From the NCBI GenBank assembly GCA_029258795.1, contig JAPDKB010000008.1, positions 64,001 through 128,000 on the forward strand: a stretch of DNA of 64,000 nucleotides, written 5' to 3'. The position numbers and the translations under genes are program-made. Positions 1,520-47,404 of the stretch are shown here, one piece after another. The stretch is from an archaeon. GTDB taxonomy: Archaea > EX4484-52 > WAPT01. Position 1 is the stretch's first letter; each line of letters opens with the position of its first letter. The notes beneath the pieces were generated by a model, which saw only the letters and a program-made list of their open reading frames with translations, was not told where the DNA came from and ran no database searches.

Positions 1520-4500
1520 ATGCAGTATGACTTCCACAAAATCGAGAAGGAGGTAAAGGAGTACTGGGAAAAGAACAAAATTCCGGAAAGGATTGCTGAC
1601 TTCAATGCCAACCTAAAGACACGTAAAAAGAAATTCTATCTGCTTGATGGACCGCCTTATGCCAACGCCCCTCCTCACGCTGGACATGCCATGACCATAG
1701 TTTTCAAGGATCTCTGGGGTAAGTTCAAGTTCATGAACGGCTATGCTGTCTGGTTCCAGCCGGGTTTTGACTGTCACGGCCTGCCGATTGAGAATATGGT
1801 TGAGAAGAAGTTTGGGATAGGATCAAAGAAGGATATAGAGAACAAGATTGGTGTTGCCAAGTTCATTCAGATGTGTAAAGAATATGCTACTCAAAACCTG
1901 AAAGAATGGATGGAATACTACAAAGATCTTGGAGCATGGAAGGGCTGGCTCACGCCTTACTTAACTTACGAGCCATACTACATAGAGAGCATATGGTGGA
2001 CCGTCAAAAAGCTTTTCGATGAAGGGTTGATGGTTAAGGGCAAGAAGCCCATACACTGGTGCCCGAGATGCCAGACATCCATTTCAGGGTATGAGGCTAC
2101 CGACTCCTACAAAAACGTTACCGACCCCTCCATTTATGTTAAGTTCAAGGTGAAGGATAGGGATAACGAGTACCTGCTCGCATGGACCACAACACCTTGG
2201 ACGCTTCCGGCTAACGTTGCGCTTGTTGTTCATCCTGATGAGACCTACGTTAAGATTGAGGTTGATGGCGAGTATTTAATTCTCGCTGAAAAACGCCTTA
2301 AGGATGTGATGGAAAGAGCTGGCATCAAGGACTACAAGGTTATTGAGAAGTTTGAGGGTAAGAAGCTGGATGGTGTGGAGTACGAGCCATTAATGCCAGA
2401 GCTTCAGACGCAGCAGGAGGCTGCCAAGAGTGGAAAAGCGCACAGAATTGTTATGTCCGTCCCTATTCTGAAGAAGGTTGTTGCCTCCAAGATAAAAGCA
2501 AAGAAAGAGGTTGAGGAGGAAGAGGAAGGAGAAGCTTTTGGTCACATGGTTACCATGGATGCCGGTACAGGCATAGTGCACTGTGCTCCCGGCCATGGAG
2601 CAGAAGACAACAAGCTTGGTGCTTATTATGGCTTGCCAGTAATCTCGCCTGTTGATGATGAGGGCAAGTTCACAAGCGAAGCTGGTTGGCTGGAAGGAAA
2701 GTTTGTGAAGGATGCGGATAAGGAAATAATAGAGCATCTTAAGCAAAAAGGTCTGCTATTCCACGCTGAAAGGATAGTTCACAGCTATCCTCTCTGCTGG
2801 AGGTGCAAAACCCCCCTCATTTACCGCACCACAGACCAATGGTTCTTCCTCATAGACCCAATAAAGGAGATGATGCTCAAATTCAATGAAGAGACAAGAT
2901 GGCTTCCTGACTTTGCAAAGGAGCGCATGAGGAACTGGGTCAAGGACGAGGCGGACTGGTGCATATCGACGCAGAGATACTGGGGCGCGCCAATCCCAAT
3001 CTGGGAGTGTAAGAACTGCGGGCACATGATCGCTGTGGGAAGCAAGAAGGAGCTTGAGGAGAAAATGGTGAACGATGTCAAGCTTGATGACCTCCACAAG
3101 CATGTTGTGGATAAGGTTGTGCTGAAATGTGAGAAGTGTGGAGGGGAGATGAAGAGAATTCCGGACATAATAAACATCTGGGTGGAGAGCGGCGTTGCTC
3201 CATGGGCTTCGCTCGGCTATCCTTATTATGATGGCGGTCTACTCAAAAAGCTGTGGCGCGTTGATCTGGTGGATGAGTCCCAGGATCAAATAAGGGGTTG
3301 GTTCCACGCCATGCTGTTCATGTCCGCTGCCACGTTCAAGGAGAGACCATATAACACCGTTTGCATGAACGGCTGGGTGCTGGATGAAAAAGGAGAGAAG
3401 ATGAGCAAGAGCTTGGGGAACGTGATTTCAGCGGAAGAGGCATTCGAGCAGCTCGGCGCTGATGTGCTCCGCTTGTACGTTTGCTACAGCACAGCTCCGT
3501 GGGAGACACATAAGTTCAGCATGAAGGAAGCAAAGGAACTCTTCCGCTTCATGAACATAATGGTCAATCTTGTCAACTTTGTGGACATGTATGGTGTAGA
3601 TATCAATGTTGATGGCGGCATGCCCAATCTCACCCGTGTTGAGGACAGATGGCTTCTTTCGAGGCTTAACTCCATAATAAGGAAGGTTGAAAGCCACATT
3701 GAAAACTTCCACTTCCATGCAGCAGCAAGAGAGCTTGTGGAGTTCGTGATGGAGGACTTCTCCCGCCTCTATCTGAAGCTGGTAAAGGAGAGGTATGATA
3801 AAAATGAGGAAAGAGAAGCGATGGATCATGTAATATCCAAGACAATCTTTGATGTGGTGAGAATGCTCGCACCCTTCTGCCCGTACATAAGCGAGTACAT
3901 CTATCTGAAGCTGTTCAAGGATGCTGTTAAGGAGGATTCAGTACACATGTTGGAGTGGCCCGTGGCTAATGAGAAGCTGATTGATGAGAAGTTGGAAAGG
4001 GAGATGGAGCTCGTTATGAAGATTGTGGAGGAACTCAATTCAATCAGGCAGAGCAAGGGCATAAGGTTGAGGTGGCCTCTTGAAGAAGTTGTGCTCTCGT
4101 CCAACGAGATCACTGCAAGGATTGGGGATGACATCAAGGAAGTCATAAAGACGCTTGCAAACGTGAAAAAGGTTGTTGTTAAGGATGTTGAGCTGAGCTA
4201 TGCGCTGAAGCCCAGATATGATGTGATAGGGCCGAAGTTTGGAGAGAAAACAAGAGAGGTTGTTGCCCTCCTGCAGAAACAAAGGCCTGAGGAGCTTTTG
4301 AACCGGCTTGAGGAAGAGGGGGCTGTAATGGTTGGTGAGTTTGAAATAACAAAAGAGATGGTGGATGTTGATGTCAAGCTTGAAAACGTGCCTGCTGGCT
4401 ATGAAGGTGGAGTTGTTGACGGCACAGCTGTGCTTCTCAAGGTTGAGATCGCGCCTGAACTGAAGGAAGAAGGGATAGCCAGAGAGTTCATAAGAAGAGT

Positions 4501-4705
4501 GCAGCTGGCAAGGAAGGAACTTGGCTTAAGGTTTGAGGATGAGGCAAAGCTGCTTGTCGATGGCATGTCTCCTTTCATCAACAAGTGGAAGGATTTGATT
4601 GAGGAAGAGACGAACACGAAAATTGTTGTTAGCGAGCTGAAAGAAGAGAGTGCTGAGAAGTTTGAGTTTGAAGAGGTCAAGCTTATTTTCAGGGTGGAAA
4701 AATAG
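1520..4705 (+). CDS. ileS: isoleucyl-tRNA synthetase
   Basis: DGPPYAN, HAGH, GFDCHGLP, WTTTPWTLP, GTGIVH, WCISTQRYWG, DQIRGWF and KMSKS motifs. Confidence 0.97.
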   Translation: MQYDFHKIEKEVKEYWEKNKIPERIADFNANLKTRKKKFYLLDGPPYANAPPHAGHAMTIVFKDLWGKFKFMNGYAVWFQPGFDCHGLPIENMVEKKFGIGSKKDIENKIGVAKFIQMCKEYATQNLKEWMEYYKDLGAWKGWLTPYLTYEPYYIESIWWTVKKLFDEGLMVKGKKPIHWCPRCQTSISGYEATDSYKNVTDPSIYVKFKVKDRDNEYLLAWTTTPWTLPANVALVVHPDETYVKIEVDGEYLILAEKRLKDVMERAGIKDYKVIEKFEGKKLDGVEYEPLMPELQTQQEAAKSGKAHRIVMSVPILKKVVASKIKAKKEVEEEEEGEAFGHMVTMDAGTGIVHCAPGHGAEDNKLGAYYGLPVISPVDDEGKFTSEAGWLEGKFVKDADKEIIEHLKQKGLLFHAERIVHSYPLCWRCKTPLIYRTTDQWFFLIDPIKEMMLKFNEETRWLPDFAKERMRNWVKDEADWCISTQRYWGAPIPIWECKNCGHMIAVGSKKELEEKMVNDVKLDDLHKHVVDKVVLKCEKCGGEMKRIPDIINIWVESGVAPWASLGYPYYDGGLLKKLWRVDLVDESQDQIRGWFHAMLFMSAATFKERPYNTVCMNGWVLDEKGEKMSKSLGNVISAEEAFEQLGADVLRLYVCYSTAPWETHKFSMKEAKELFRFMNIMVNLVNFVDMYGVDINVDGGMPNLTRVEDRWLLSRLNSIIRKVESHIENFHFHAAARELVEFVMEDFSRLYLKLVKERYDKNEEREAMDHVISKTIFDVVRMLAPFCPYISEYIYLKLFKDAVKEDSVHMLEWPVANEKLIDEKLEREMELVMKIVEELNSIRQSKGIRLRWPLEEVVLSSNEITARIGDDIKEVIKTLANVKKVVVKDVELSYALKPRYDVIGPKFGEKTREVVALLQKQRPEELLNRLEEEGAVMVGEFEITKEMVDVDVKLENVPAGYEGGVVDGTAVLLKVEIAPELKEEGIAREFIRRVQLARKELGLRFEDEAKLLVDGMSPFINKWKDLIEEETNTKIVVSELKEESAEKFEFEEVKLIFRVEK

Positions 4706-4712
4706 GGGTAAA

Positions 4713-4910
4713 TTAGCACACAGCAACATTTATGCCCAGCACATCCAAAAAGCTAACTATGATACTTGCGATATCACAAGCTATTCCCTGAATCTTGTCC
4801 AAAAACCCTCCTTCTTTTGTCAGGAAAATGAAAATAATCATACCTACAAACAGTGCCAGCATTATCAATCCGAACTCAGTTAATCCAAGCTCAATCCCCT
4901 TTCGTCTCAT
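4713..4910 (-). CDS. small class III signal peptide (pilin-like) protein
   Basis: MRRKG|IELGLTEF followed by hydrophobic helix. Confidence 0.7.
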   Translation of the reverse strand: MRRKGIELGLTEFGLIMLALFVGMIIFIFLTKEGGFLDKIQGIACDIASIIVSFLDVLGINVAVC

Positions 4911-4941
4911 GGTGAGTTGATGGTTCATGCTAATTCTACCT

Positions 4942-5049
4942 CTAAGGTCTTCCTAAATAATTGAAAGCTGTAGCAAAGAGCACATATAACAGCAATAGCC
5001 CGAGTAAAAGCATTAACAGAAGGCTGACCGAAAGGCCTGCTTTTTTCAT
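4942..5049 (-). CDS. 35-aa pilin-like membrane peptide (not in ORF track)
   Basis: hand translation MKKAGLSVSLLLMLLLGLLLLYVLFATAFNYLGRP*; basic N-terminus + hydrophobic helix. Confidence 0.5.
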   Translation of the reverse strand: MKKAGLSVSLLLMLLLGLLLLYVLFATAFNYLGRP

Positions 5050-5093
5050 CCTTACCACAACATATTTAAGGGAGGACAACAGATTTATAAGTT

Positions 5094-5288
5094 ATGTACT
5101 GCTCTTTAAGGAAAAGAAAAGGAGCTTCATATATAGAAATCATATTTTTGGTGTTATTGCTTGCATTCATCACATTTTTGTTTGTGGCTTTGTTCCGGCA
5201 CTGGGACATTAGCCTGGATGAAAAGGTTAAAAATGCTTTTGACACTGTTATGGCGAAAGCTCAGGAAAAGTTCGGGGTGGTGTTTTAA
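5094..5288 (+). CDS. class III signal peptide pilin-like protein
   Basis: RKRKG|ASYIE (Glu at +5) + hydrophobic helix. Confidence 0.75.
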   Translation: MYCSLRKRKGASYIEIIFLVLLLAFITFLFVALFRHWDISLDEKVKNAFDTVMAKAQEKFGVVF

Positions 5289-5480
5289 ATGGGAAGGAAG
5301 GGTATGGATAAAGTGGTGTGGATAGTTCTGAGTGTGTTATTAGCATTTGTTGTTGTTTATTTAGCTATCAAAATAACGGGTGGTAGCTTTTTTGGGTTTG
5401 AAAGCCTAGTACATAGTGGGCTCGAAGAATCAAACCAAACAATTAATGAAAGCATAGAAAATATAACAAAAGGTTGGTGA
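5289..5480 (+). CDS. class III signal peptide pilin-like protein
   Basis: MGRKG|MDKVVWIVLSVLL. Confidence 0.7.
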   Translation: MGRKGMDKVVWIVLSVLLAFVVVYLAIKITGGSFFGFESLVHSGLEESNQTINESIENITKGW

Positions 5481-5486
5481 TGTGTT

Positions 5487-5993
5487 ATGAGACCGCTGAA
5501 AAAAGGTTTCTCATTTTCTATATCCACCATAGCAGTGATTTTTCTCGTAGTGATAGTGATAGCCATCATTATTAAGTTCTATGGGGGAAGTATAGTTCCC
5601 CATCTCAATACTACTAAACTCAATATAGGTAGACTTGGTAATGTTACTACCACTATCGTTAATGAATCAACTTCCTCTTATCTCAACCCCTCAGGTGGCT
5701 CATCCAGTAGCTCATCTTATACTTTGACTCTATCGAATATGGGTGCTGGAAGCGGTAATAATTGTACCATAAACCTCAATGTCACTGATTCAAACAACAA
5801 GCCAGTTCCGAGTATAACCGTTACCGCACGGTATGACACCACATCTTCGAGCTGTACAAGCCAGAATGATGGCTCCTGTAAGATAGAAATTCCAAAACCT
5901 AGCCAAGAAGTAAACGTCTCTATCACTTGTTCTGGTTGCAATTCATTATGCATTAAAACAAACCCCTCATGTGGTAATCTGGGTGGGTGTTAA
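5487..5993 (+). CDS. pilin-like protein with Ser/Thr/Cys-rich beta (Ig-like) C-terminal domain
   Basis: LKKG|FSFSI + TM helix; Ser linker; C-terminal domain with several Cys. Confidence 0.7.
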   Translation: MRPLKKGFSFSISTIAVIFLVVIVIAIIIKFYGGSIVPHLNTTKLNIGRLGNVTTTIVNESTSSYLNPSGGSSSSSSYTLTLSNMGAGSGNNCTINLNVTDSNNKPVPSITVTARYDTTSSSCTSQNDGSCKIEIPKPSQEVNVSITCSGCNSLCIKTNPSCGNLGGC

Positions 5994-6157
5994 TGAAAAT
6001 TACCAAAAAAAGTAAGGGTTATTCTTGGCTGGAGATAATATTTTTTGTGCTGTTGCTTTCTGCATTGATATTTATTCTCATGAAATTCGGTAAAGGAGCG
6101 ATAGATAAAATATTGGGGCTTGCTGACCTCGGTTGGGAGAAAGGAGGGTTGAAATGA
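5993..6157 (+). CDS. 54-aa class III signal peptide pilin-like protein (not in ORF track)
   Basis: hand translation MKITKKSKG|YSWLEIIFFVLLLSALIFILMKFGKGAIDKILGLADLGWEKGGLK*; Glu at +5; TAATG and ATGA overlaps with neighbours. Confidence 0.7.
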   Translation: MKITKKSKGYSWLEIIFFVLLLSALIFILMKFGKGAIDKILGLADLGWEKGGLK

Positions 6158-6396
6158 ACAGGAAAGGACTGGTAGGAAGTCAGATCATGCTCATCATCTA
6201 CATAGTTATTTTTATAATCTGTTTAGCTCTTGCTTACATAATTCTTAATAAAATAGGCGTGCCCATTGTTGATACTTTGAAGAGGCAGTGGGGCTGGGTT
6301 AGCACAGTGGTCAAGACAGTGAGCTTTATTGGAAATGCCATTGATACTGTGATGAACATAGCTGGCAAGATATGGGGTTTTCTCACAGGCGGATAA
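6154..6396 (+). CDS. class III signal peptide pilin-like protein
   Basis: MNRKG|LVGSQIML + hydrophobic helix; ATGA overlap with upstream gene. Confidence 0.7.
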   Translation: MNRKGLVGSQIMLIIYIVIFIICLALAYIILNKIGVPIVDTLKRQWGWVSTVVKTVSFIGNAIDTVMNIAGKIWGFLTGG

Positions 6397-6419
6397 GAAA
6401 TTAAAATTTCCAAATTGAG

Positions 6420-6824
6420 GTGGAAAGTATGGATGAGAAAGCGAGGTCGATAGAGGTTTCTGGAAATAGCATAATCATTACTCTATCTCCATCGTTGTAT
6501 TCCAAAAACGCGGTAATGCGGGCCGCTTACAGGATGCTGGGTAATTGCAGCGCCAGGGTGCTGGGAGATGGCATAAATTCATTATCCGTTGAGCTGAGAG
6601 TGCTTGATGATGATGGGAGGGTGGACAAAGAGGATTTGGTTGACGCTTTTTTCGCTGAGCTGCTTCAGGCGGAGATGGAAGAGATTAACATGCGCAAATT
6701 CGGAGATGTGAGGAAAATGCTTCTTGAACTTGCCATAAGAGGGCTTGCAGCAGGAAAAAATGCAAATGTGGGTCAAAATCAGGATAATAAAGGTGAGGTG
6801 AATGAGGAAGAAAGAATTGTTTAG
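6420..6824 (+). CDS. hxsD: HxsD-like accessory protein of radical SAM RiPP system
   Basis: SLYSKNAVMRAAY and FFAELL..EEI...GDVRKMLLELAI resemble HxsD; adjacent to HxsC/HxsB-like genes. Confidence 0.65.
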   Translation: MESMDEKARSIEVSGNSIIITLSPSLYSKNAVMRAAYRMLGNCSARVLGDGINSLSVELRVLDDDGRVDKEDLVDAFFAELLQAEMEEINMRKFGDVRKMLLELAIRGLAAGKNANVGQNQDNKGEVNEEERIV

Positions 6825-7092
6825 AAAACTCAGATCTCTTGTCAAACCACCTCAACTCAATGATGATGGGGCATTGAATGTGCTCACACTTCTTGCAATT
6901 ATAAGTGCGCTCCCTCTCCTTTCCAAGCTCGCTCACTCAGTTGTAACTCATGAATGCGTCACCAACAAACAGGAATGGAGTGAGGTGGAGGGCGAGTACA
7001 ATACTTGGCTTCATAATGAGTGGAGCAACTGGATAGAGTGGGCTGATTGGAAGGAATGGTGTGAGTGGGGAAAGTGGGGAAACGGTGGTTAG
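6802..7092 (+). CDS. putative RiPP precursor peptide with Trp-Xaa-Xaa repeat core
   Basis: GAGGTGA RBS directly upstream; 96 aa; basic N-terminus, hydrophobic segment, then W74,77,80,83,86,89,92 in exact 3-residue register. Confidence 0.85.
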   Translation: MRKKELFRKLRSLVKPPQLNDDGALNVLTLLAIISALPLLSKLAHSVVTHECVTNKQEWSEVEGEYNTWLHNEWSNWIEWADWKEWCEWGKWGNGG

Positions 7093-7096
7093 ACAG

Positions 7097-8008
7097 ATGA
7101 GACTCATGCTCAAGAAGGCTTACTGCGTGTTCGGATATCAGTGCAACAATAACTGCAGGATATGCGCGGTCAGCTCGCAGGAGAGAGCGAGAAAGGAGCG
7201 GATCGGCACGGAAGAGCTCGTAAACTTTCTTATAGGGCTCCCACGCGAAATAAGGATTGTGGAGATTTCTGGAGGGGAGCCAACAATAAGAAGTGATTTT
7301 TTCACCGTTCTTGAAAAGGTAAGCAGTGAAAAACCCCATCTGAAATATCATCTTCTCACAAACGGAAGAATGCTGTCTTCAATCACCTTTGCGGAAAAAC
7401 TTGCAGACCTCCCTGTGGATTTCATAATTACGGCTCTTCACTCCGCCACACCGGAGAGACATGACTGGATGACCAGAGCTGAAGGAAGTTACATGCAGAC
7501 CATACAGGGTGTGAGAAACGCTTTAGATATGGGGTTTCGAGTCTCCCTAAAAACAATTGTGAATAAATCTAACTACAGAGAGCTGGAAAATATAGCAACT
7601 TTTGTCTGCTCTAGGTTTGATGACATCGATTTCTTTTCTTTTCACGCGCTTGACCTGACGGGAAATGCTCTTAAACACGCTTCCGAAGTTGCCGTAAGGA
7701 TGAGTGAAACCATCGATAATCTTCTTAGGGCTGTGACCATCCTTGACTCCTCGGGAATTAGAGTCAGGATATATGGATACCCTTACTGCATGGTGTCCGA
7801 AGACCTCTGGAAATATATTGCACCACAACCAAAACTGATTTACGGATATAAATCTCCATCACTGGAAATTGTAAACCAGAAATTTGATGATAACTACGGT
7901 CTGCTCGATGTTTGCGAGGGCTGCTCGCTCAGATACAAGTGCTCGGGATTGTGGTATACTTATGTCGAGTTTTTCGGCAAAGATGAGATTGTGCCAGTAG
8001 GAGGGTGA
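7097..8008 (+). CDS. hxsC: radical SAM protein, HxsC-like
   Basis: CNNNCRIC, ISGGEPT, LLTNGR, ALHS...HD, C-terminal CEGC-x5-CSGL. Confidence 0.75.
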   Translation: MRLMLKKAYCVFGYQCNNNCRICAVSSQERARKERIGTEELVNFLIGLPREIRIVEISGGEPTIRSDFFTVLEKVSSEKPHLKYHLLTNGRMLSSITFAEKLADLPVDFIITALHSATPERHDWMTRAEGSYMQTIQGVRNALDMGFRVSLKTIVNKSNYRELENIATFVCSRFDDIDFFSFHALDLTGNALKHASEVAVRMSETIDNLLRAVTILDSSGIRVRIYGYPYCMVSEDLWKYIAPQPKLIYGYKSPSLEIVNQKFDDNYGLLDVCEGCSLRYKCSGLWYTYVEFFGKDEIVPVGG

Positions 8009-9387
8009 AGGACGTGTACCTACTCAACGATGTACTCGAAGATAAATTGGACGGGAACAGAACTCTTCTCACCACGAGGTATGGAAGCTGGGTCATACTT
8101 ACAGAGGATGATGTAAAGGCTCTGAGGTCCGGCAAGGCTGATGAGGAACTTCTTCAGAAGCTGGAAGAGGCGGGGATCATACTCACCGAGAGGAACATCA
8201 GATCAGAACTGGAAAAAATCGTCAGGAGGTTTGGATACCTTTACAATATGCCGTTTCTCAACGTTCAGATCAATCTGACCCTGAGGTGCAATCTTTTATG
8301 CAAGTATTGTCACGCAAACTCTAGTCCAAGCTCAAGGCTGGAGATGGACAGAGATATCCTGCTTGATGTCGTAAGATTCCTTGAGCGCCTGCCGAAAACC
8401 TACATTTCCCTCGAATTTCAGGGTGGAGAACCCTTTCTCAAGTTTGACCTAATGGAGGAGCTCGTCGAGAGGGTGCGGAATGAGGTCAAGGATAAAAAGG
8501 TGGTCGAGACTGTGGTGATTTCCAACGGCACCGTTATCGATAAGGATATAGCAAGGTGGGTTGCTAAAAATAACGTTTCTGTTTCCGTGTCGCTTGACGG
8601 TCCGAAGGAAATGCACGATTCTCAGCGCGTTTATCCAAATGGCAAGGGAACTTACGAAGATGTTTTGCATGCCATCACACTGCTGCGGGATGCCGGGGGT
8701 TTTCCAACTTCCACCGCGACCATCACAAAGAACACCGTTAAGCTCGGAGGTGCGGAAAGGGTGATTGAGGAGTATGTTAAGAGGGGGTTTCCATTCATCT
8801 TTTATAGACCCATCATGGATGCGGGGCGTGGGGAGGATAACGAGGAGCTTGCACTGAGAGCTGAGGAGTTCTTCGAGTTTGTTAAGGGAAGCATTGAGAA
8901 GGTTGTGCAGCTGAAGCGTGAGGGTGTTGTTTTTAGGGATAAGTTTGTCGAAAAATTCCTTCAGAATATTTTTGGAAAGGGTACGCGTTCCTATTCATGT
9001 CTGCGCGATGTGTGTGGGGCAGGAATTACGCAGCTCGTGGTGGCTCCGGATGGTTGGCTGTATCCGTGTGATGTTATGAAGGTCTTGCCGGAATTCCGGG
9101 TCGGAAGGCTCGAGAACCAATACGAGGAAGTTATGATGAATGTGCTCAACAGCATGATGGTTCTGCCGGACATCTCCGCTGAGTGTCCTTCCTGTCCCTA
9201 CATAGCGTTCTGCGGTTTCTGCAAGCGGTGGAACTACGGAATATCCCGCTCACTGCTGCCGTACCACTTCCTGAGCGAGGACTGCAAATTCAAAAAAATG
9301 TTTTTCAAGTACATATTTCAGAATCTGAAATTCTTCCGTAAAAATGTGGACTGCTTTGTGGTTGAGGAGGGAGTGAGGTATGACTAG
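8005..9387 (+). CDS. hxsB: radical SAM/SPASM peptide maturase, HxsB-like
   Basis: N-terminal LLTTRYGSWVIL extension, CNLLCKYC, EFQGGEP, SLDGP, SPASM Cys set CGAG..YPC..CPSC..FC..C..DC. Confidence 0.8.
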   Translation: MKDVYLLNDVLEDKLDGNRTLLTTRYGSWVILTEDDVKALRSGKADEELLQKLEEAGIILTERNIRSELEKIVRRFGYLYNMPFLNVQINLTLRCNLLCKYCHANSSPSSRLEMDRDILLDVVRFLERLPKTYISLEFQGGEPFLKFDLMEELVERVRNEVKDKKVVETVVISNGTVIDKDIARWVAKNNVSVSVSLDGPKEMHDSQRVYPNGKGTYEDVLHAITLLRDAGGFPTSTATITKNTVKLGGAERVIEEYVKRGFPFIFYRPIMDAGRGEDNEELALRAEEFFEFVKGSIEKVVQLKREGVVFRDKFVEKFLQNIFGKGTRSYSCLRDVCGAGITQLVVAPDGWLYPCDVMKVLPEFRVGRLENQYEEVMMNVLNSMMVLPDISAECPSCPYIAFCGFCKRWNYGISRSLLPYHFLSEDCKFKKMFFKYIFQNLKFFRKNVDCFVVEEGVRYD

Positions 9388-10174
9388 CTGCTTTCGCTAT
9401 TTTTATCTGGTTTCCGCCCTCATCATGATTATCCTTGCGTTTCACATAACCAAAAGTTTTGTTCTCACATCCGCTCTTGTGTTCGCTTCCTTTTTTGGAG
9501 CAACCCTTCTTGCCATCGGGAAGGAATATGGATGGAGTGTTGTCTTTTCTGCATTTCACACAGCTATGAAAACACTCTCTCTTCTTATGCTTTCATTCAG
9601 TTTGCTGTTTTCCCTCTGCAAACAGGCGGTGGATATTAATTCCTTTTTATTGTTCATCCTGCTACTTTTCTCTTCGGTGAGTGCAGGAGCGATTGTGAAG
9701 CGTGCAGAAAATGTGTTGAGGTTCTGGCATGCGCTGCTACTTCTTGGATTTGCGCTTTCCGTTTACTTCCACTTTTACTTCATTTTTCTCAAAATTTCGG
9801 CCTTGCTCTTCATGATTTACGCAACCCCTTCCCTTACAACCCTACAGGTTGAGGTCTCTGAAAAGATTGTGGGAGAGTTCCCCGCAGAGATTGTGAAGGT
9901 CAGCAAGAAAGGTGTGAAAAAGGAAAGAATTTCTGTTTCTAAGATCAGGCTGGCACGCGCGGCCTTTTGCATCAGTAAGGGAGAGGTTATTGCCCAGCCC
10001 TTCAGAAGGCTGGATGATGCAGCGGTGAAGCTGTTGAAGAAAGCAGGGGTTAAGGAAATAAGGATTCAGAGGAAGGTGCTCCCGCAAAATATCTTTTTTC
10101 TTTCGATTCTCCTGTTCTTCCTTCTTATCCTTCTGGTAGCTCTACTGAATACGTTCCGAATGACTGTGGTGTGA
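9380..10174 (+). CDS. multi-pass membrane protein with prepilin-peptidase-like C-terminal domain, catalytic Asp motifs not seen
   Basis: about 6 TM segments; C-terminal part aligns by eye to the C-terminus of the A24 peptidase at 32660-33598. Confidence 0.6.
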   Translation: MTSCFRYFYLVSALIMIILAFHITKSFVLTSALVFASFFGATLLAIGKEYGWSVVFSAFHTAMKTLSLLMLSFSLLFSLCKQAVDINSFLLFILLLFSSVSAGAIVKRAENVLRFWHALLLLGFALSVYFHFYFIFLKISALLFMIYATPSLTTLQVEVSEKIVGEFPAEIVKVSKKGVKKERISVSKIRLARAAFCISKGEVIAQPFRRLDDAAVKLLKKAGVKEIRIQRKVLPQNIFFLSILLFFLLILLVALLNTFRMTVV

Positions 10175-12353
10175 TGGCTGTATTGGAAATTATATCGTCA
10201 GGCACACACGTCTCTGTTCCTCCGTTGCATTTGTTGTCATCAACATTCACGTTCACGATGAATCGCAGAACTACTGGAGTCCACTTATTCTGCGAGACAT
10301 CGAAGAGCTTGTATTTGGAATCGATAATTTCAACCAGTATTTTCAGATCCTTGAAGATGTAACGGTGGTAGTATTTCATAGTGCATTTGTGCCAATAATT
10401 CCATGCGATTTTGCACTTCCACTTTGGACAGCAATATTTATAACAATCCACATGAGGGGGTGGTTTCTGGATTAGCACCTGCCTTTCCACATGAATCAGG
10501 TTCTTATCTGTCCCTTCAATCTCCAGACCGCATCCAGAAGTGATGGTTTCGGTTACGGTTTTTTTTGCAAGCGTGTCTTTGTTTTCCACGAGTTCATTGA
10601 TTAACTCGTCTATTCGTGAAATGTAAGAATTATAGCTGCTATTTACGGTTAAGCAGAAGTCATCTATACTAGTTGTGTGTATACTTGAACATGCTGATTG
10701 AATGGAGTTGCACAAATCGTAAATATAGGGGGAATTGCAATATTCTTCAAGTTTTGGTGTGGTATCGTGAAACACAGAGCTAGGCAAATGGCCTGAACAA
10801 ATTACATTTACTCCCTCTTTTAGCGAATTACACCTAGAAATAAGATCTGAGCAATCTTCGTCCGTGACTGTTCCGGCTGCGCATATCGTGTCTATTTCTC
10901 TTCCCAGATCTTCCCTATCCGGGTTATAACCCATGAAATCGTTTATTGCGTTAAGTGTGTCATCATCCGTTCTATCAAGGGTGATGCTTCCCGCTTTACT
11001 CGGTGTTGCACTGTCACAGCACGGCTTCTTGTTGTCGTTCACACTCTCCCAAACATGCTTATCATCAAGATAGATGAGCTTCCATCCTATTCCTTCTGCA
11101 GAGCTCGCATTGAGATCGGCTTCAAGCTCGCTGAGAGCGCTTGTTATGACATTTTCAAAATCTGCTTCACCATATGTTGGTGTCTTATCCTCAGGACAAT
11201 CGTTACAAGTTAAAGGTCTGCAAACTTCCTCGCTTTCCTCTGTATAGTAATCCTGTAGCTTTTCATTGGACTTTTCAAATATCTTCCTTATCAACCATTC
11301 CTCAATGTTATCCACAAAGGTGTTGCCATAGTTCACCATCAATCCAAGCCTGGTGGAAACGTTCGTTTCGGTAAACATGTTGGAATGCAGCATGACCGTG
11401 ACCTTACCCTCTCTAGAAACTCTCGTTACGTTCATCCCTTCACTCATCCACACACTTCCGTGGATAGTATTTGTTGATGGGTCAAAAGTCACGTTGGGTT
11501 TTGATCCTTTGAAAGTCATACCATACATGTTGGTGGGTGTCCCTCTATAGTACTGTTCAAGATACCTTTCCATTATTTCCTGAATCATATCTCTACCACA
11601 ACCTACAGCGGAAAACTTGTTGGAGTCCTTATGCTTGTATATGGTCGCCACGATTCCGCGAAGCTTAACAGTATTGTTTCTGGATGCTTTGATTTCTATT
11701 CGATTTCCTTCTATAGAATCCCCTTTCAGGAAGTAAACACCCGTGTGATTTGCATTCATTAGTATTGTGCCTCCTGATTTTATAGTCACTGTCGCGTTTT
11801 TGAGGAAGTAGAGAGTTAGCATAACCTCTCCGACTCTGAACCCGGGATCCACGCTGAACTCTATAGTGGTGGGCACTCTTCCAATCCACCCATTGAAATC
11901 CTTGAAATATGAGATGGGTTTGTAAACCTGCATCCCTGTTCCCTCCGCTTGAACCCAGTAGAGCACATACTCTCCATCAACATCTTCTATCCTCATACAA
12001 CCCCTATCCACACCCTCAAAATTCACTCTCATGTTCAGAACGTACTTTCGATTGCCGCTTTCATAAGTTATACCGTTTTCAGCTATGAGCTTGGACGTTA
12101 TCATTCCATGCGATGCGTAGTCAAGAACTGTTTTCATCATCGCAAATATTAGCGCTGGCTGTTCCTGACTTTCCTTTATCATCGATATCTCGAATTTCCC
12201 TTTCTCTATGAAATTTCTCAGCACTTCACCCTCTATTATTTGCATCGCCTCAAAAGTTCTGGTTAGCATAACCCAAGAGGCAAAAGCTACCCACACCATC
12301 AGGAGTAACGCTACTGCCAAAACCGATGCAAATCCCTTATCCCTATCTTTCAT
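10125..12353 (-). CDS. large Cys-rich class III signal peptide surface protein (adhesin/minor pilin-like)
   Basis: MKDRDKG|FASVLAVALLL; 742 aa; many Cys in C-terminal half. Confidence 0.7.
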   Translation of the reverse strand: MKDRDKGFASVLAVALLLMVWVAFASWVMLTRTFEAMQIIEGEVLRNFIEKGKFEISMIKESQEQPALIFAMMKTVLDYASHGMITSKLIAENGITYESGNRKYVLNMRVNFEGVDRGCMRIEDVDGEYVLYWVQAEGTGMQVYKPISYFKDFNGWIGRVPTTIEFSVDPGFRVGEVMLTLYFLKNATVTIKSGGTILMNANHTGVYFLKGDSIEGNRIEIKASRNNTVKLRGIVATIYKHKDSNKFSAVGCGRDMIQEIMERYLEQYYRGTPTNMYGMTFKGSKPNVTFDPSTNTIHGSVWMSEGMNVTRVSREGKVTVMLHSNMFTETNVSTRLGLMVNYGNTFVDNIEEWLIRKIFEKSNEKLQDYYTEESEEVCRPLTCNDCPEDKTPTYGEADFENVITSALSELEADLNASSAEGIGWKLIYLDDKHVWESVNDNKKPCCDSATPSKAGSITLDRTDDDTLNAINDFMGYNPDREDLGREIDTICAAGTVTDEDCSDLISRCNSLKEGVNVICSGHLPSSVFHDTTPKLEEYCNSPYIYDLCNSIQSACSSIHTTSIDDFCLTVNSSYNSYISRIDELINELVENKDTLAKKTVTETITSGCGLEIEGTDKNLIHVERQVLIQKPPPHVDCYKYCCPKWKCKIAWNYWHKCTMKYYHRYIFKDLKILVEIIDSKYKLFDVSQNKWTPVVLRFIVNVNVDDNKCNGGTETCVPDDIISNTAITPQSFGTYSVELPEG

Positions 12354-13042
12354 TTGAACACCTCTGCTGTTGCAATCCCTTCAGGTAACTCTTTGTTATT
12401 GGCATTAACAAATAAGAGTGTGTAATTTACTGCGGGATAATATTCTTCAGATGGTGTAGGGATAAACACTTCCTCCTTGAAAAGATACTTACCCCCAACA
12501 CACTTACCAACATCGTAAGGGTAACGGAGATGGTGCTGCCATGTAGGTGTATTCACAAACTTGTTATAAAAAACTCTCTGGGGAAAGTGTCTCTCCCCAC
12601 TGCCAACTATAGAGGGTAGAGAGGGTGGGGGTGTGCATTCATCCGGCCCTTGCGGAGATGGGAGCATTAGCTTTACTGTGTTGTTCAGATTGACTTTACC
12701 CTTAACACCACCATAATCAATATACACTTCACTCCATCCAGGAATGAAATGATTAACTTGAGATAAATCGTGCTGCGCTCCGTAAGTGTAAATGCCCAGC
12801 AGTTCATCAATCTGGAGTGTGCTGCGCTCACCCGAGTCAAGTGTTGGTTTTACATTGAAGTATGTTAAATAGGTGGATGCGTTTCTCTCCGTAGCGTAAT
12901 ACTGAATTACAGCCCCGATTGACTTGAAATTCTTCAGCCACGGCATGAAAATGGAGATGACTAGTGTTAATGTTATCAGGAGCACGAATACAGGTAGCTC
13001 CAATCCAAGCGCCTTATTTCTGTATTTTTTAAACATCGTCAC
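12350..13042 (-). CDS. class III signal peptide protein
   Basis: YRNKA|LGLELPVFVLL + TM helix. Confidence 0.65.
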   Translation of the reverse strand: MTMFKKYRNKALGLELPVFVLLITLTLVISIFMPWLKNFKSIGAVIQYYATERNASTYLTYFNVKPTLDSGERSTLQIDELLGIYTYGAQHDLSQVNHFIPGWSEVYIDYGGVKGKVNLNNTVKLMLPSPQGPDECTPPPSLPSIVGSGERHFPQRVFYNKFVNTPTWQHHLRYPYDVGKCVGGKYLFKEEVFIPTPSEEYYPAVNYTLLFVNANNKELPEGIATAEVFK

Positions 13043-13518
13043 CGCCCTTCAAGAGTTACGTTCAGGTATGTGAATTCCACGATTACTGGATATCCGTCAT
13101 CTGTGGATAGATGATACTTCATGGTAGCGTTTAGTTTTTTCCCTGCCACGTTTTTGAAGGTTTTTCTGGAAAGTACATTATTAAAGTCTGGAGTGTAGAT
13201 TGTTATGTTGAGAATGTATTCAATATCATCTCCAAGACAGGGTAGTGGTGCGCCATCGGGTGTGCTTTCTATAAACGTTCGGTTTAAAATGAACCACCTT
13301 CTATTGTTTAGAGAGTCGTTCGCAAGCAGGCAGCTATCGGTGATTATCTTGTTGGCGTAAGCTTCCATTAATCTGGCTCTGGCTAGCTCATCTATCGTTT
13401 TTGCGTTCATACCGGATTCAGCTTTATATACTAAGAGAGCTGCTGATGCGATTATGATGAGCACCATGGCACTAAATACCTGGGTGTATGGGAGCCCTCC
13501 TTTCATTGCTTTCAACAT
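13039..13518 (-). CDS. class III signal peptide protein
   Basis: AMKG|GLPYTQVFSAMVLIII. Confidence 0.6.
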   Translation of the reverse strand: MLKAMKGGLPYTQVFSAMVLIIIASAALLVYKAESGMNAKTIDELARARLMEAYANKIITDSCLLANDSLNNRRWFILNRTFIESTPDGAPLPCLGDDIEYILNITIYTPDFNNVLSRKTFKNVAGKKLNATMKYHLSTDDGYPVIVEFTYLNVTLEGR

Positions 13519-32682: not shown

Positions 32683-33598
32683 ACCCGTATTTTGCCGTTA
32701 CCAGCAATGATAAAAAGAAGGTTGGAGCGTAGCGCACACCTTCCTTTATCTTGATTTTACCCTTTCGCTCCGTCTTCAGCTTTCCGGATTTCCATGCTTT
32801 CTTTATGAAGTCCACATCCTGTTTTGTCAGACCCACGAAAAGCTTTGAGCTGAACCTTTTCGTTGGAGTTTTGACATCTTCAGCGAGCACATCCCCCTCC
32901 TTCAACTTTTGGATGCTTATGTATCTCATAAAAACGTTTCTATCAGCATGTCTGGCGAAGTTAAGCAGGATGAAGAGCAGGAACATGATCGCGGTGTATT
33001 TAGCTCCCACTAAAACCATCTCCATTGCGATGCTCTCGTTGAGTGGAGAGAGGTAAAGATACGCTGTGCAGCCCATCACCAGAGGTATGGAAGCCACCAC
33101 ACCTTTAATCCGCATCCCTTCAAAGCTGGCTTTCAGCAGCTCACTTTTCTTCTCAGCATATAAAAGCGCGTAAATCAGGGTAAAGAGGATAGCATATATT
33201 GCTCCTACCACAAAACAGTTTATGAGAAATGCGACGGGGTAGAAAAGTAAGTGATTGACAGCCATCAAATTCGGGTGGAAGAAGCTCAGCGGTTTTGGTA
33301 CTGCAAATCCTATCGATGCTAAAATCAATACGTCAGCTTCACCCCACTGTCCTGTGGAGAAAAGCGCGTATCCCAGCACGAGGAAAATTGTGGCTGTGGC
33401 AAAAGCTATGAATATGTCATCCCACTGGGAGAAAACCACACCCCTGCCAAGATAAATCAGAAGTGCTCCCACAAAACCCCCAAGCGGAACAAAATCTGGG
33501 ATTTCGGTGGTTTTGATATCATATATTGCTCCTGCAAGGGATGTTAGACATGCTATCAGGAAAAGCGTGTGGTCTGAGAGGATGAGCGAGACATCCAT
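32660..33598 (-). CDS. prepilin/preflagellin peptidase (A24)
   Basis: YDIKTTEIPD and GQWGEAD catalytic Asp motifs; EGDVL; RYAP. Confidence 0.88.
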   Translation of the reverse strand: MDVSLILSDHTLFLIACLTSLAGAIYDIKTTEIPDFVPLGGFVGALLIYLGRGVVFSQWDDIFIAFATATIFLVLGYALFSTGQWGEADVLILASIGFAVPKPLSFFHPNLMAVNHLLFYPVAFLINCFVVGAIYAILFTLIYALLYAEKKSELLKASFEGMRIKGVVASIPLVMGCTAYLYLSPLNESIAMEMVLVGAKYTAIMFLLFILLNFARHADRNVFMRYISIQKLKEGDVLAEDVKTPTKRFSSKLFVGLTKQDVDFIKKAWKSGKLKTERKGKIKIKEGVRYAPTFFLSLLVTAKYGFIFFYLF

Positions 33599-45850: not shown

Positions 45851-47404
45851 TCACTTTTCCTTCAACCCCTCCTCCGTTACCTCTCCCACCACATCATCCT
45901 CCAGCTTTTTGCCTGTTTTCTTCTCCCACTCCTCCACGCTCATACCGTACTGTTCGTTTATCTTATCCCTGTAAACCTCGGGGAACACGTTGTAAGTACA
46001 GAATGGGATTATCCTGCCGTCGGGAGTGGCATAATGAATGCAGCACCTCTTGACACGCTCTATATCATAGTTGTAGGGATCCTGAAAGTGCATCATACCT
46101 ATGAAAAGGGCTTTCCAGTGGAACTCTCCCAAGCTGGAGTAGTCAGCGTTCCTGAAAATATCGGTCAGTATCTTCTTTATATCCATCCCTTTCGGCGCTT
46201 TCTCCTGATCAACAACTTTATTCAGCCCCGCTATCAGCTTGGCAAGAGCTTTGGCTTTTCCTATCTTACTCTGCAAATTCTCCTGAGCCATTGAGTTGAG
46301 CAGGGTGATGAAGCCCGGCACATCTATGAAATCAGTTATGGGTATAATGCCACGTGAATCATCAAGGAAAATGTATGTAGCCATACCGCAGTGTGGATGG
46401 GTGGTGAACTCAACCTGAGGCGCTCCTTTCACAGCTTCGACAAATCTTGAGACGGGCACTACCGTTGGTACGGGATAGAAGGCATTGGCTGGAATCTTTC
46501 CGTTTGTTTGTTCTTCAATCCCATGAATGACATCGGGAATTGTGATGCGCATCTTCTCCCTCATCTTTGCGGGCATGCTCCCCACGAACGAAACGGGCTG
46601 GAAGTTCACACCTCTAACTATGTCTATGTTCTTAACGGCAAACTCGATTATCGCCCCGAGCTCGTGATCGTTAACTCCTTTTATCACAGTTGGTACAAGC
46701 ACCACAGGCATCTTCGCATCTCTCAGAGCATCAAGAATGGCGGGAATGTATTTGTGGTTTTTGGGGTTTGTCTTTTCAGTCACACCGTCAAAGCTCAGAT
46801 AAACCACGTTAACTCCAGCCTTCCTGAACTCTTTTGCAAGTTCTGGTTCTCTCGCAAATCTCAAGCCATTCGTGTTTAGCTGGATGTGAGAAAAGCCAAG
46901 CTTTTTGGCTTCCTTAACGATCTCTATCATATCATCTCTCATCAAAGGTTCTCCGCCCGTGAACTGAACAGCTGGAGTTGGCACTGGTTTGTTTGACCTC
47001 AGAACCTTCAGCATGTCCACTATAACCTCAAAATCGGGCTCGTAAACATAGCCCTGCGCTCCTGCATTTGCGAAACAGTACCAGCATCTCAGGTCACAGC
47101 GGTTGGTCACGAACACATTCGCAAGTACCGTGTGGCTTTTGTGGAAGTTGCACAGTCCGCACGCCCAGGGGCATGCATCCTCACTCGAAGCTTTTATCTT
47201 CGGATTTTCCACTCCTCTTCCATCGTTAGCATACTTCTTTGCCTGCAGGTACATGTAGTAGTCGCTCCAGTAAACTTCCTTGAACTCGCCGTGTTCCTCA
47301 CATCTCTTTATTATGTAAACTTTACCCCCTTCCTCAACTATATCGGCTGAAAGAACACGTTTGCATTCCGGACATACCGACTTGGTCTTGCCTATAATCC
47401 GCAT
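45851..47404 (-). CDS. tes: tetraether lipid synthase (Tes/GDGT-MAS)-like radical SAM protein
   Basis: N-terminal SVCPEC..CEEHG, CPWACGLCNFH, CDLRCWYC, HPHC, MHFQD, RCCIHY..IIPFC. Confidence 0.85.
   Translation of the reverse strand: MRIIGKTKSVCPECKRVLSADIVEEGGKVYIIKRCEEHGEFKEVYWSDYYMYLQAKKYANDGRGVENPKIKASSEDACPWACGLCNFHKSHTVLANVFVTNRCDLRCWYCFANAGAQGYVYEPDFEVIVDMLKVLRSNKPVPTPAVQFTGGEPLMRDDMIEIVKEAKKLGFSHIQLNTNGLRFAREPELAKEFRKAGVNVVYLSFDGVTEKTNPKNHKYIPAILDALRDAKMPVVLVPTVIKGVNDHELGAIIEFAVKNIDIVRGVNFQPVSFVGSMPAKMREKMRITIPDVIHGIEEQTNGKIPANAFYPVPTVVPVSRFVEAVKGAPQVEFTTHPHCGMATYIFLDDSRGIIPITDFIDVPGFITLLNSMAQENLQSKIGKAKALAKLIAGLNKVVDQEKAPKGMDIKKILTDIFRNADYSSLGEFHWKALFIGMMHFQDPYNYDIERVKRCCIHYATPDGRIIPFCTYNVFPEVYRDKINEQYGMSVEEWEKKTGKKLEDDVVGEVTEEGLKEK

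Follow-up and report, generated by a model that had tools for sequence, protein, structure and literature searches.

In bacteria, HxsA, HxsB, HxsC and HxsD make up HXS, an antiphage system reported in Nat Commun 2026 (PMC13128918). According to that report, HxsA carries a signal peptide, is processed in an HxsBCD-dependent manner and acts in the periplasm, where the cationic, peptidoglycan-binding effector protects by blocking viral genome entry; 99.7% of the systems belong to Pseudomonadota, and the gene order D-B-C-A is given for 99.6% of them (PMC13128918). The only Hxs modification published so far, described there, amounts to +8 Da at one SHRSS motif, its structure being presented as unsolved, versus the -2 Da of a cyclophane link (PMC13128918). 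Among the triceptide-forming enzymes, OscB links C7 of Trp to the Cβ of Asn or Asp at i+2 (PMC11002830), and sister enzymes of OscB use His, Tyr and Phe (PMC11002830; PMC11499958).

In the window, by which we mean the whole 64,000-nucleotide stretch of archaeal DNA analysed here, we found a cassette of five tightly packed genes, overlapping or separated by 4-nt gaps, in which the ORF 6802-7092 is likely to fill the HxsA slot, as the substrate peptide of an archaeal HXS branch that has diverged and in which Trp-x-x replaces His-x-Ser. The five genes are the following:

6420-6824, forward strand: HxsD-like small protein of 134 aa (TIGR03976 HxsD, E 5e-8, 33.2 bits, cut-off 50)
6802-7092, forward strand: precursor ORF of 96 aa with an ATG start, as given in the ORF list; orthologues in two congeners are 52-53% identical
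7097-8008, forward strand: HxsC-like radical SAM enzyme of 303 aa, with CX3CX2C at C16/C20/C23 (TIGR03977, E 2.9e-52, 177.4 bits, cut-off 267.9)
8005-9387, forward strand: HxsB-like radical SAM/SPASM enzyme of 460 aa (TIGR03978, E 8.1e-79, 265.5 bits, cut-off 370)
9380-10174, forward strand: conserved multi-pass membrane protein of 264 aa, which follows HxsB in Trp-type loci

The HxsB-, HxsC- and HxsD-like proteins each match the corresponding family best, and all three matches lie below the NCBIfam curated cut-offs. TIGR03976 is the sole NCBIfam match of the HxsD-like protein and is covered from position 4 to 87 of 90; the 3' end of its gene overlaps the precursor start by 23 nt, and in related loci HxsD-like ORFs are located upstream of the precursor or of HxsB. 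The HxsC-like enzyme additionally scores 74.5 bits against Pfam Radical_SAM. In the family of the HxsB-like enzyme, C95, C99 and C102 are invariant and the SPASM cysteines nearly so. Its nearest named relatives in a set of 5.8 billion proteins are all called HxsB, at 25-32% identity, and GrrM/OscB is absent from its best 25 matches; the second-best NCBIfam family after TIGR03978 is PapB (5.7e-44), while among the characterised cyclophane synthases YhhB comes out best with 79.8 bits (cut-off 445); WgkB scores 77.9 bits (cut-off 650). PADLOC, which has no HXS model, returned only generic viperin-type radical SAM matches and, for the HxsD-like protein, one weak match to REase_II (E 0.0077). Complex prediction for the HxsB-like enzyme and the precursor, both supplied as alignments, gave a score of 0.00 in two runs. 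The first-pass annotation had read the ORF as a precursor in the company of radical SAM, HxsB-like and HxsD genes; that it is a conserved precursor-like gene beside HxsB-, HxsC- and HxsD-like genes is borne out by the best family matches and by the related loci described below.

Like bacterial HXS, the cassette combines an HxsB- and HxsC-type radical SAM pair with a small HxsD-type protein and a repeat substrate bearing an N-terminal export signal, here a candidate one, and its HxsB-type radical SAM/SPASM maturase groups with HxsB against a GrrM outgroup. Unlike bacterial HXS, however, the substrate is a Trp-x-x peptide of only 96 aa, acidic and devoid of a peptidoglycan-binding domain, the genes are arranged in the order D-A-C-B followed by a fifth gene for a membrane protein, and the host is an uncultured archaeon. 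The scores of the HxsB-, HxsC- and HxsD-like proteins (265.5/370, 177.4/267.9 and 33.2/50 bits versus cut-off, respectively) also set it apart from HXS as defined. Since the substrate, the gene order and the scores against cut-offs all depart from those of the Hxs system, we regard the cassette as a variant; judging by sequence, it appears to descend from an Hxs system, to which we liken its putative manner of working.

The region upstream of the precursor and the layout of its product were read as follows:

6792-6801, forward strand: Shine-Dalgarno-like GGTGAGGTGA, immediately 5' of the precursor ATG, read from the sequence
6802-7092, forward strand: domain plan of the precursor, namely a basic N-terminal helix, a hydrophobic segment, an A-H-S site, Cys52 and the Trp array
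6802-6867, forward strand: basic n-region, residues 1-22, the proposed enzyme-recognition leader, whose conserved start is common to the His-x-Ser-type precursors of the phylum
6868-6939, forward strand: invariant Gly23, hydrophobic stretch 24-40 and A44-H45-S46, a candidate signal-peptidase I site (29-member alignment)
6955-6957, forward strand: Cys52, family-invariant (alignment of 15 sequences)
7021-7083, forward strand: seven in-register W-x-x units, residues 74-94

A GGTGA box lies at 6792-6796, six bases before the precursor ATG. Seven phased Trp triplets at DNA 7021-7083 and nine Trp in the last 38 residues had been reported from the sequence beforehand; the 96-aa product in the ORF list confirms both, with the array WSN WIE WAD WKE WCE WGK WGN in the tail and the nine Trp (W59, W69 and the seven in register) within residues 59-96. 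In six frames of the 1,168,407-base genome, period-3 Trp runs comprise a single run of 7 units, a single run of 4 and 34 runs of 3; at a Trp frequency of 0.011, derived from ORFs of 150 aa or more, about 4.5e-8 seven-unit runs per genome would be expected by chance, versus the one observed. The array is not a DNA microsatellite, because the sole report of Tandem Repeats Finder is a 9-bp unit repeated 2.1 times at 7064-7082, spanning the last two units, and its end has grown by unit duplication. The family HMM revealed no second precursor copy among the 12,982 ORFs of 40 aa or more in the genome, the precursor matches neither Pfam nor NCBIfam at E <= 0.01, and no H-x-S triplet occurs in its 96 aa. 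In the AF2 model (mean pLDDT 53.3), residues 3-13 form a helix of low confidence and the core fold is unusable. Extracellular Trp at intervals of three residues, spaced by small or polar ones, is also found in thrombospondin type-1 repeats (W-x-x-W-x-x-W ladders) and WSXWS motifs; these belong to folded domains of eukaryotes that have partner Arg strands and undergo C-mannosylation, and the likeness is one of structural analogy only.

Both congeners keep the Trp periodicity, for which a comparison of orthologues had been proposed: 7/7 array Trp are retained, with position 2 identical in 2/7 units and position 3 in 4/7. A close strain, represented by contigs of an independent study, shows 15 differences from the window in 3,001 bases. 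Its precursor carries P17S, S75N and G93E, and a 9-nt in-frame insertion behind 7063 adds one W-G-K unit, all Trp being kept; the genes flanking the precursor account for 5 non-synonymous and 6 synonymous changes. From the congener and close-strain comparisons it follows that the x residues and the number of units change while Trp is constant. Together with the Tandem Repeats Finder result, they uphold the view, already put forward in the first-pass annotation, that selection acts at the protein level.

When we inspected 42 genomes of 0.5-2.2 Mb (the order and phylum scopes give the same 42), Trp-rich precursors with one common leader were detected in 17 of them, all from this small-genome archaeal phylum, and classical His-x-Ser precursors in four. 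HxsB relatives occur in 27 of the 41 genomes searched in the order. The Trp-type loci are arranged as HxsD, precursor, HxsC, HxsB and membrane protein, and the His-x-Ser-type loci as HxsD, HxsB and precursor; the latter lack a fifth gene and have HxsC in the vicinity. In four more loci, HxsC-like genes flank HxsB and no precursor was seen within the DNA examined. One His-x-Ser precursor passes the NCBIfam model HxsA4 (60.8 bits, cut-off 55), and others match HxsA3/HxsA4 below cut-off; the Trp-type precursors give no match to the Hxs-family models at E <= 1. Both precursor types nevertheless follow one leader plan, consisting of a basic K/I-rich N-terminal helix with a conserved M-x-x-x-DK-I-KK-I-K-like start, an acidic patch that closes with an invariant Gly, some 17 hydrophobic residues and an A-x-A-like site, and hhalign aligns the leaders of the two types with a probability of 80% (E 1.3e-5, 44 columns). 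The Trp type also has an invariant Cys shortly after the A-x-A-like site and four invariant Trp; in the numbering of the window's precursor, the invariant residues among 15 sequences are G23, C52, W74, W80, W83 and W86.

Period-3 arrays are present in 7 of the 42 genomes and in three families, with no match in a reversed-pattern control: they are found in the genus of the window, in three genomes of a second family and in a single genome of a third. The Trp cores of sister lineages have period 4 (W-W-D-H) or period 2 (W-x-W-x-W). Most members have another Cys within the Trp region, as part of W-x-N-H-C-W or, in the window, of W-C-E; the period-3 locus L109 has no Cys inside its array. A single-sequence word-index homologue search with the precursor returned only the protein of the window itself, and the relatives surfaced by profile search: a profile of 15 Trp-type precursors matched 17 proteins at E <= 0.001 among 1,835,955,588 representatives, all of which share the leader, and the ten that were looked up are unnamed singletons. 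Eighty bacterial and other HxsB-like loci, screened with a crude window filter, yielded no convincing Trp-rich precursor. Within the material searched, the family is thus seen in one small-genome archaeal phylum alone. Full-text searches of published articles did not turn up any account of Hxs-type precursors with Trp repeats, or of systems of this kind in archaea.

In a maximum-likelihood tree of 35 rows with GrrM enzymes as the outgroup, all 15 Trp-linked HxsB proteins fall into a single clade together with 3 database proteins (SH-aLRT 100, branch length 0.84), separate from the HxS-linked archaeal HxsB and from named bacterial HxsB; the inner relations are unresolved. Like HxsA3/HxsA4 (NCBIfam NF038309, NF038313), the precursors described here are of similar length and follow the same leader plan, including A-x-A. 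Unlike them, they have a Trp-rich core, whereas HxsA3/HxsA4-type precursors are built of His-x-Ser, are encoded in D-B-A loci without a fifth gene and are served by HxsB enzymes that fall outside the Trp-linked clade.

The motif of the period-3 arrays of the family is W-[small]-[N/D]. Over their 82 W-x-x units, N occupies position 3 in 35 and D in 25, and position 2 is S in 30, G in 12, C in 10 and T in 8 (60/82 S/G/C/T); the array of the window departs from this in having E three times and K once at third positions, which are not OscB-type residues. A small precursor that ends in repeated aromatic-X-X motifs and is encoded beside a radical SAM/SPASM enzyme is a feature shared with the triceptides (OscB/GrrM, TIGR04261), as is the W-[small]-[N/D] bias across the family, and bacterial W-x-N ORFs adjoin GrrM/OscB enzymes. 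Unlike in triceptides, however, the maturases are Hxs-type and lie outside the characterised cyclophane-synthase families (XyeB, GrrM/OscB, FxsB, YhhB, AmcB), a second radical SAM enzyme and an HxsD-like partner are present, the precursor has an internal signal-like segment, and the cross-link is a presumed one. In metagenome contigs, the pattern (W-x-[NDEK])x4-W gave at least 118 stretches, from which 80 loci were kept, most of them looking by eye like read-throughs of repeated DNA; tblastn (E <= 1e-5) found no HxsC-, HxsD- or membrane-protein-like genes in these 80. A non-repetitive W-x-N tail stands beside a radical SAM gene in 5 of the 80, and the radical SAM genes of three of these five were scanned: two loci encode GrrM/OscB enzymes (422 and 395 bits, cut-off 310), while both radical SAM genes of the third, L194, fall below every cut-off.

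That His-x-Ser and Trp-x-Asn are both 'aromatic-X-X' motifs is the principal ground for expecting side-chain cross-links here, and the W(i)-X(i+2) cross-links suggested in the first-pass annotation are consistent with the data. The particular type of modification, in which Trp would be joined to a side-chain carbon two residues on, we put forward tentatively, as something slightly short of an even possibility. Speaking against such cross-links are the Hxs type of the enzymes, the +8 Da reported for HxsA in place of -2 Da (PMC13128918), and the E and K at third positions in the window. Moreover, Trp recurs at period 2 or 4 in sister precursors, and therefore a strict i to i+2 N/D rule cannot span the family.

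As for the leader, the window precursor has 7 K/R in residues 1-15, then D21-D22-G23 and then the hydrophobic residues 24-40, in agreement with the basic leader and the hydrophobic stretch after DDG that had been noted earlier. Across the 29 members aligned, A-x-[A/S] is present in 20 and V-x-A in most others, at a site that follows the invariant Gly by 17-22 residues and precedes the invariant Cys by 3-8; n-regions measure 20-31 aa with 5-9 K/R (one open-frame outlier left out). The leader is best read as a signal peptide of the Sec type whose long n-region may double as enzyme-recognition leader, and the hydrophobic stretch with its A-x-A/S site resembles a cleavable signal peptide more closely than it does an anchor. 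Retention of the product by a membrane anchor, as originally envisaged, is disfavoured by the signal-peptidase-like A-x-[A/S] that lies between the hydrophobic stretch and the invariant Cys in 20/29 members. Sec-type cleavage itself seems to us about evenly balanced on these features. The predicted mature part after A44-H45-S46 would comprise about 50 residues with 10 D/E, 3 K/R and 9 Trp; it is acidic, unlike the cationic HxsA, and therefore DNA binding is unlikely to carry over.

Other explanations of the locus have to be weighed against this one. That the ORF is a chance or untranslated frame whose Trp periodicity reflects a DNA-repeat artefact could draw on the many metagenome loci that resemble repeated-DNA read-throughs and on the 9-bp duplication in the last two units of the array, but it is practically untenable and already contradicted by the conservation data: the seven-unit run stands against a chance expectation of 4.5e-8, the DNA repeat is absent outside 7064-7082, the gene has an SD-like box, operon packing and orthologues that keep all Trp while other codons differ, and the profile matches share a leader unrelated to the repeat. 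Quite improbable, too, is a pilin-like product, cut after Gly23 at a class III type site, that would retain the hydrophobic helix and thereby display its Trp array in a filament or at the cell surface, a reading close to the surface retention proposed in the first-pass annotation. Gly23 is indeed invariant before the hydrophobic stretch in 15/15 sequences; 7 of 10 members of the fifth-gene family match Pfam PF06819 Arc_PepC, the C-terminal domain of archaeal A24 prepilin peptidases (best E 1.7e-9); and eight class-III-like ORFs, in which [KR]-G precedes a hydrophobic stretch, surround the cassette at 5094-13518, and five of these lie directly upstream in the same orientation. However, class III signals have a short n-region ending in [K/R]-[G/A], whereas that of the window is 21 aa long and ends in D-D-G (E-K-T-G in relatives), so that K/R at -2, present in the neighbouring pilin-like ORFs, is missing here, and long n-regions of 20-31 aa are the rule in the family. 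The membrane protein of the window itself matches neither Arc_PepC nor any other family; the fifth-gene membrane protein has no PF01478 match, and its family alignment contains no invariant Asp. Its AF2 model (pLDDT 76.7) consists of six helices, a small β-domain and a C-terminal helix and has no counterpart in the PDB at E <= 0.001 by Foldseek (best E 0.051) and no usable match in the ESM Atlas. The sole PF01478 peptidase of the genome lies away from the cassette, at 33188-33556 of the window; pilin-like neighbours occur in only 1 of 12 other loci scanned, where flanks were short overall (two ORFs in locus L273); and the conserved A-x-A/S site after the hydrophobic stretch also speaks against a pilin.

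It is somewhat unlikely, in our view, that the radical SAM enzymes spare Trp altogether and form thioether or other links at cysteines, or make a one-carbon modification as in bacterial HxsA, leaving the Trp array as an unmodified functional surface that might, for instance, bind glycans or the membrane interface. In favour of this, Cys52 is invariant, and the second Cys of most members lies in the Trp region; the best matches of the SPASM enzyme after HxsB are thioether-forming or Cys-directed maturases (PapB at 5.7e-44, CcpM and the SCIFF maturase); the published Hxs change of +8 Da is not a cross-link mass (PMC13128918); and Trp periodicity varies across the family. Against this, the single core feature found family-wide is Trp richness with small or polar neighbours, N/D occupies the third position in 60/82 units, as in proven Trp-Cβ cyclophane substrates, and some period-3 members, such as L109, have no Cys inside the array.

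The reality of the gene and its place in the cassette are well supported. We consider it most likely that the precursor, probably an exported peptide, is an uncatalogued Trp version of the Hxs enzyme-modified repeat peptide. In such a pathway, the precursor peptide would be synthesised in the cytoplasm, where its basic N-terminal helix may be bound by the HxsD-like/HxsC-like/HxsB-like machinery. The two radical SAM enzymes would then modify the C-terminal repeat, the likeliest reaction being the joining of each indole to the side-chain carbon two residues on (N/D/E/K), and the seven units, once cross-linked, would form a row of small rigid rings. The internal hydrophobic segment would next serve as signal sequence, and a cut after A44-H45-S46 would free some 50 residues, acidic and rich in Trp, at the cell envelope. 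By analogy with HxsA, this peptide may be an effector located in the envelope; that its function is virus exclusion is a doubtful extension of the same analogy.

A wider reading, which we think unlikely as a whole, holds that HxsB/HxsC-type enzymes are general 'aromatic-X-X' cross-linkers and that the archaeal product is a ribbon of seven to ten Trp cyclophanes, exported or pilin-like. If it were true, His-x-Ser and Trp-x-Asn/Asp would be two faces of one chemistry, the archaeal peptide would be a covalently rigid aromatic surface ladder that excludes viruses or grips a host cell, and the unresolved modification of bacterial HXS would gain a chemical explanation. The Trp-type family is rare, with 17 members among 1.84 billion representative proteins. 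Its Trp-rich substrate would yield products that can readily be tracked by UV and mass, and its repeat array differs in unit number between strains. A related enzyme branch in which His-x-Ser has been swapped for Trp-x-Asn/Asp narrows what Hxs enzymes can be doing.

The number of units in the Trp array of the precursor is polymorphic: in contigs from two runs of another study, an in-frame insertion of 9 nt at window position 7063/7064 gives the array one more W-G-K unit.

The cassette is flanked by eight ORFs, at 5094 to 6393 (+) and 10128 to 13518 (-), whose N-termini look like class III, pilin-like signals, each having a short basic segment with [K/R]-G or [K/R]-A at its end and a long hydrophobic run after it. 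Five of the eight are co-directional with the cassette and end 26 nt upstream of the HxsD-like gene. None of the eight gave a Pfam match; one of the downstream ORFs encodes a 742-amino-acid Cys-rich protein which is conserved in the two congeners. The genome has a single match to PF01478 (peptidase A24, prepilin peptidase), at 33188 to 33556 (-), roughly 23 kb away from the cassette; it scores 35.5 bits, above the cut-off, within an open frame of 317 amino acids.

Another radical SAM gene, with an open frame of 521 amino acids, is found at window positions 46904 to 47131 (-) (G000:C3:110904-111131), which the HxsB model matches weakly (E value of 8e-7). Among related loci, the HxsC-like gene of L270 (4765 to 6612; genome G041), a locus whose precursor has a period-3 Trp array, encodes a 616-amino-acid tandem of two radical SAM domains, so that the cassette there has three such domains. 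The HxsC-like ORFs of the g5 loci are also long, at about 490 amino acids. Four loci (L259, L260, L262, and L269, from G034, G020, G004, and G030, respectively) combine an HxsD-like ORF with an HxsB gene that has one or two HxsC-like genes beside it; the DNA retrieved for them showed no precursor rich in Trp or His.

On the metagenome contig L194, an 82-amino-acid ORF (6369 to 6614, -) ends in nine [W/Y]-x-N units and is followed by two radical SAM/SPASM genes (4778 to 6094 and 3679 to 4956, -), both of which fall under every NCBIfam cut-off, with anSME and DynA as top matches. L194 may represent an uncharacterised bacterial cyclophane system.
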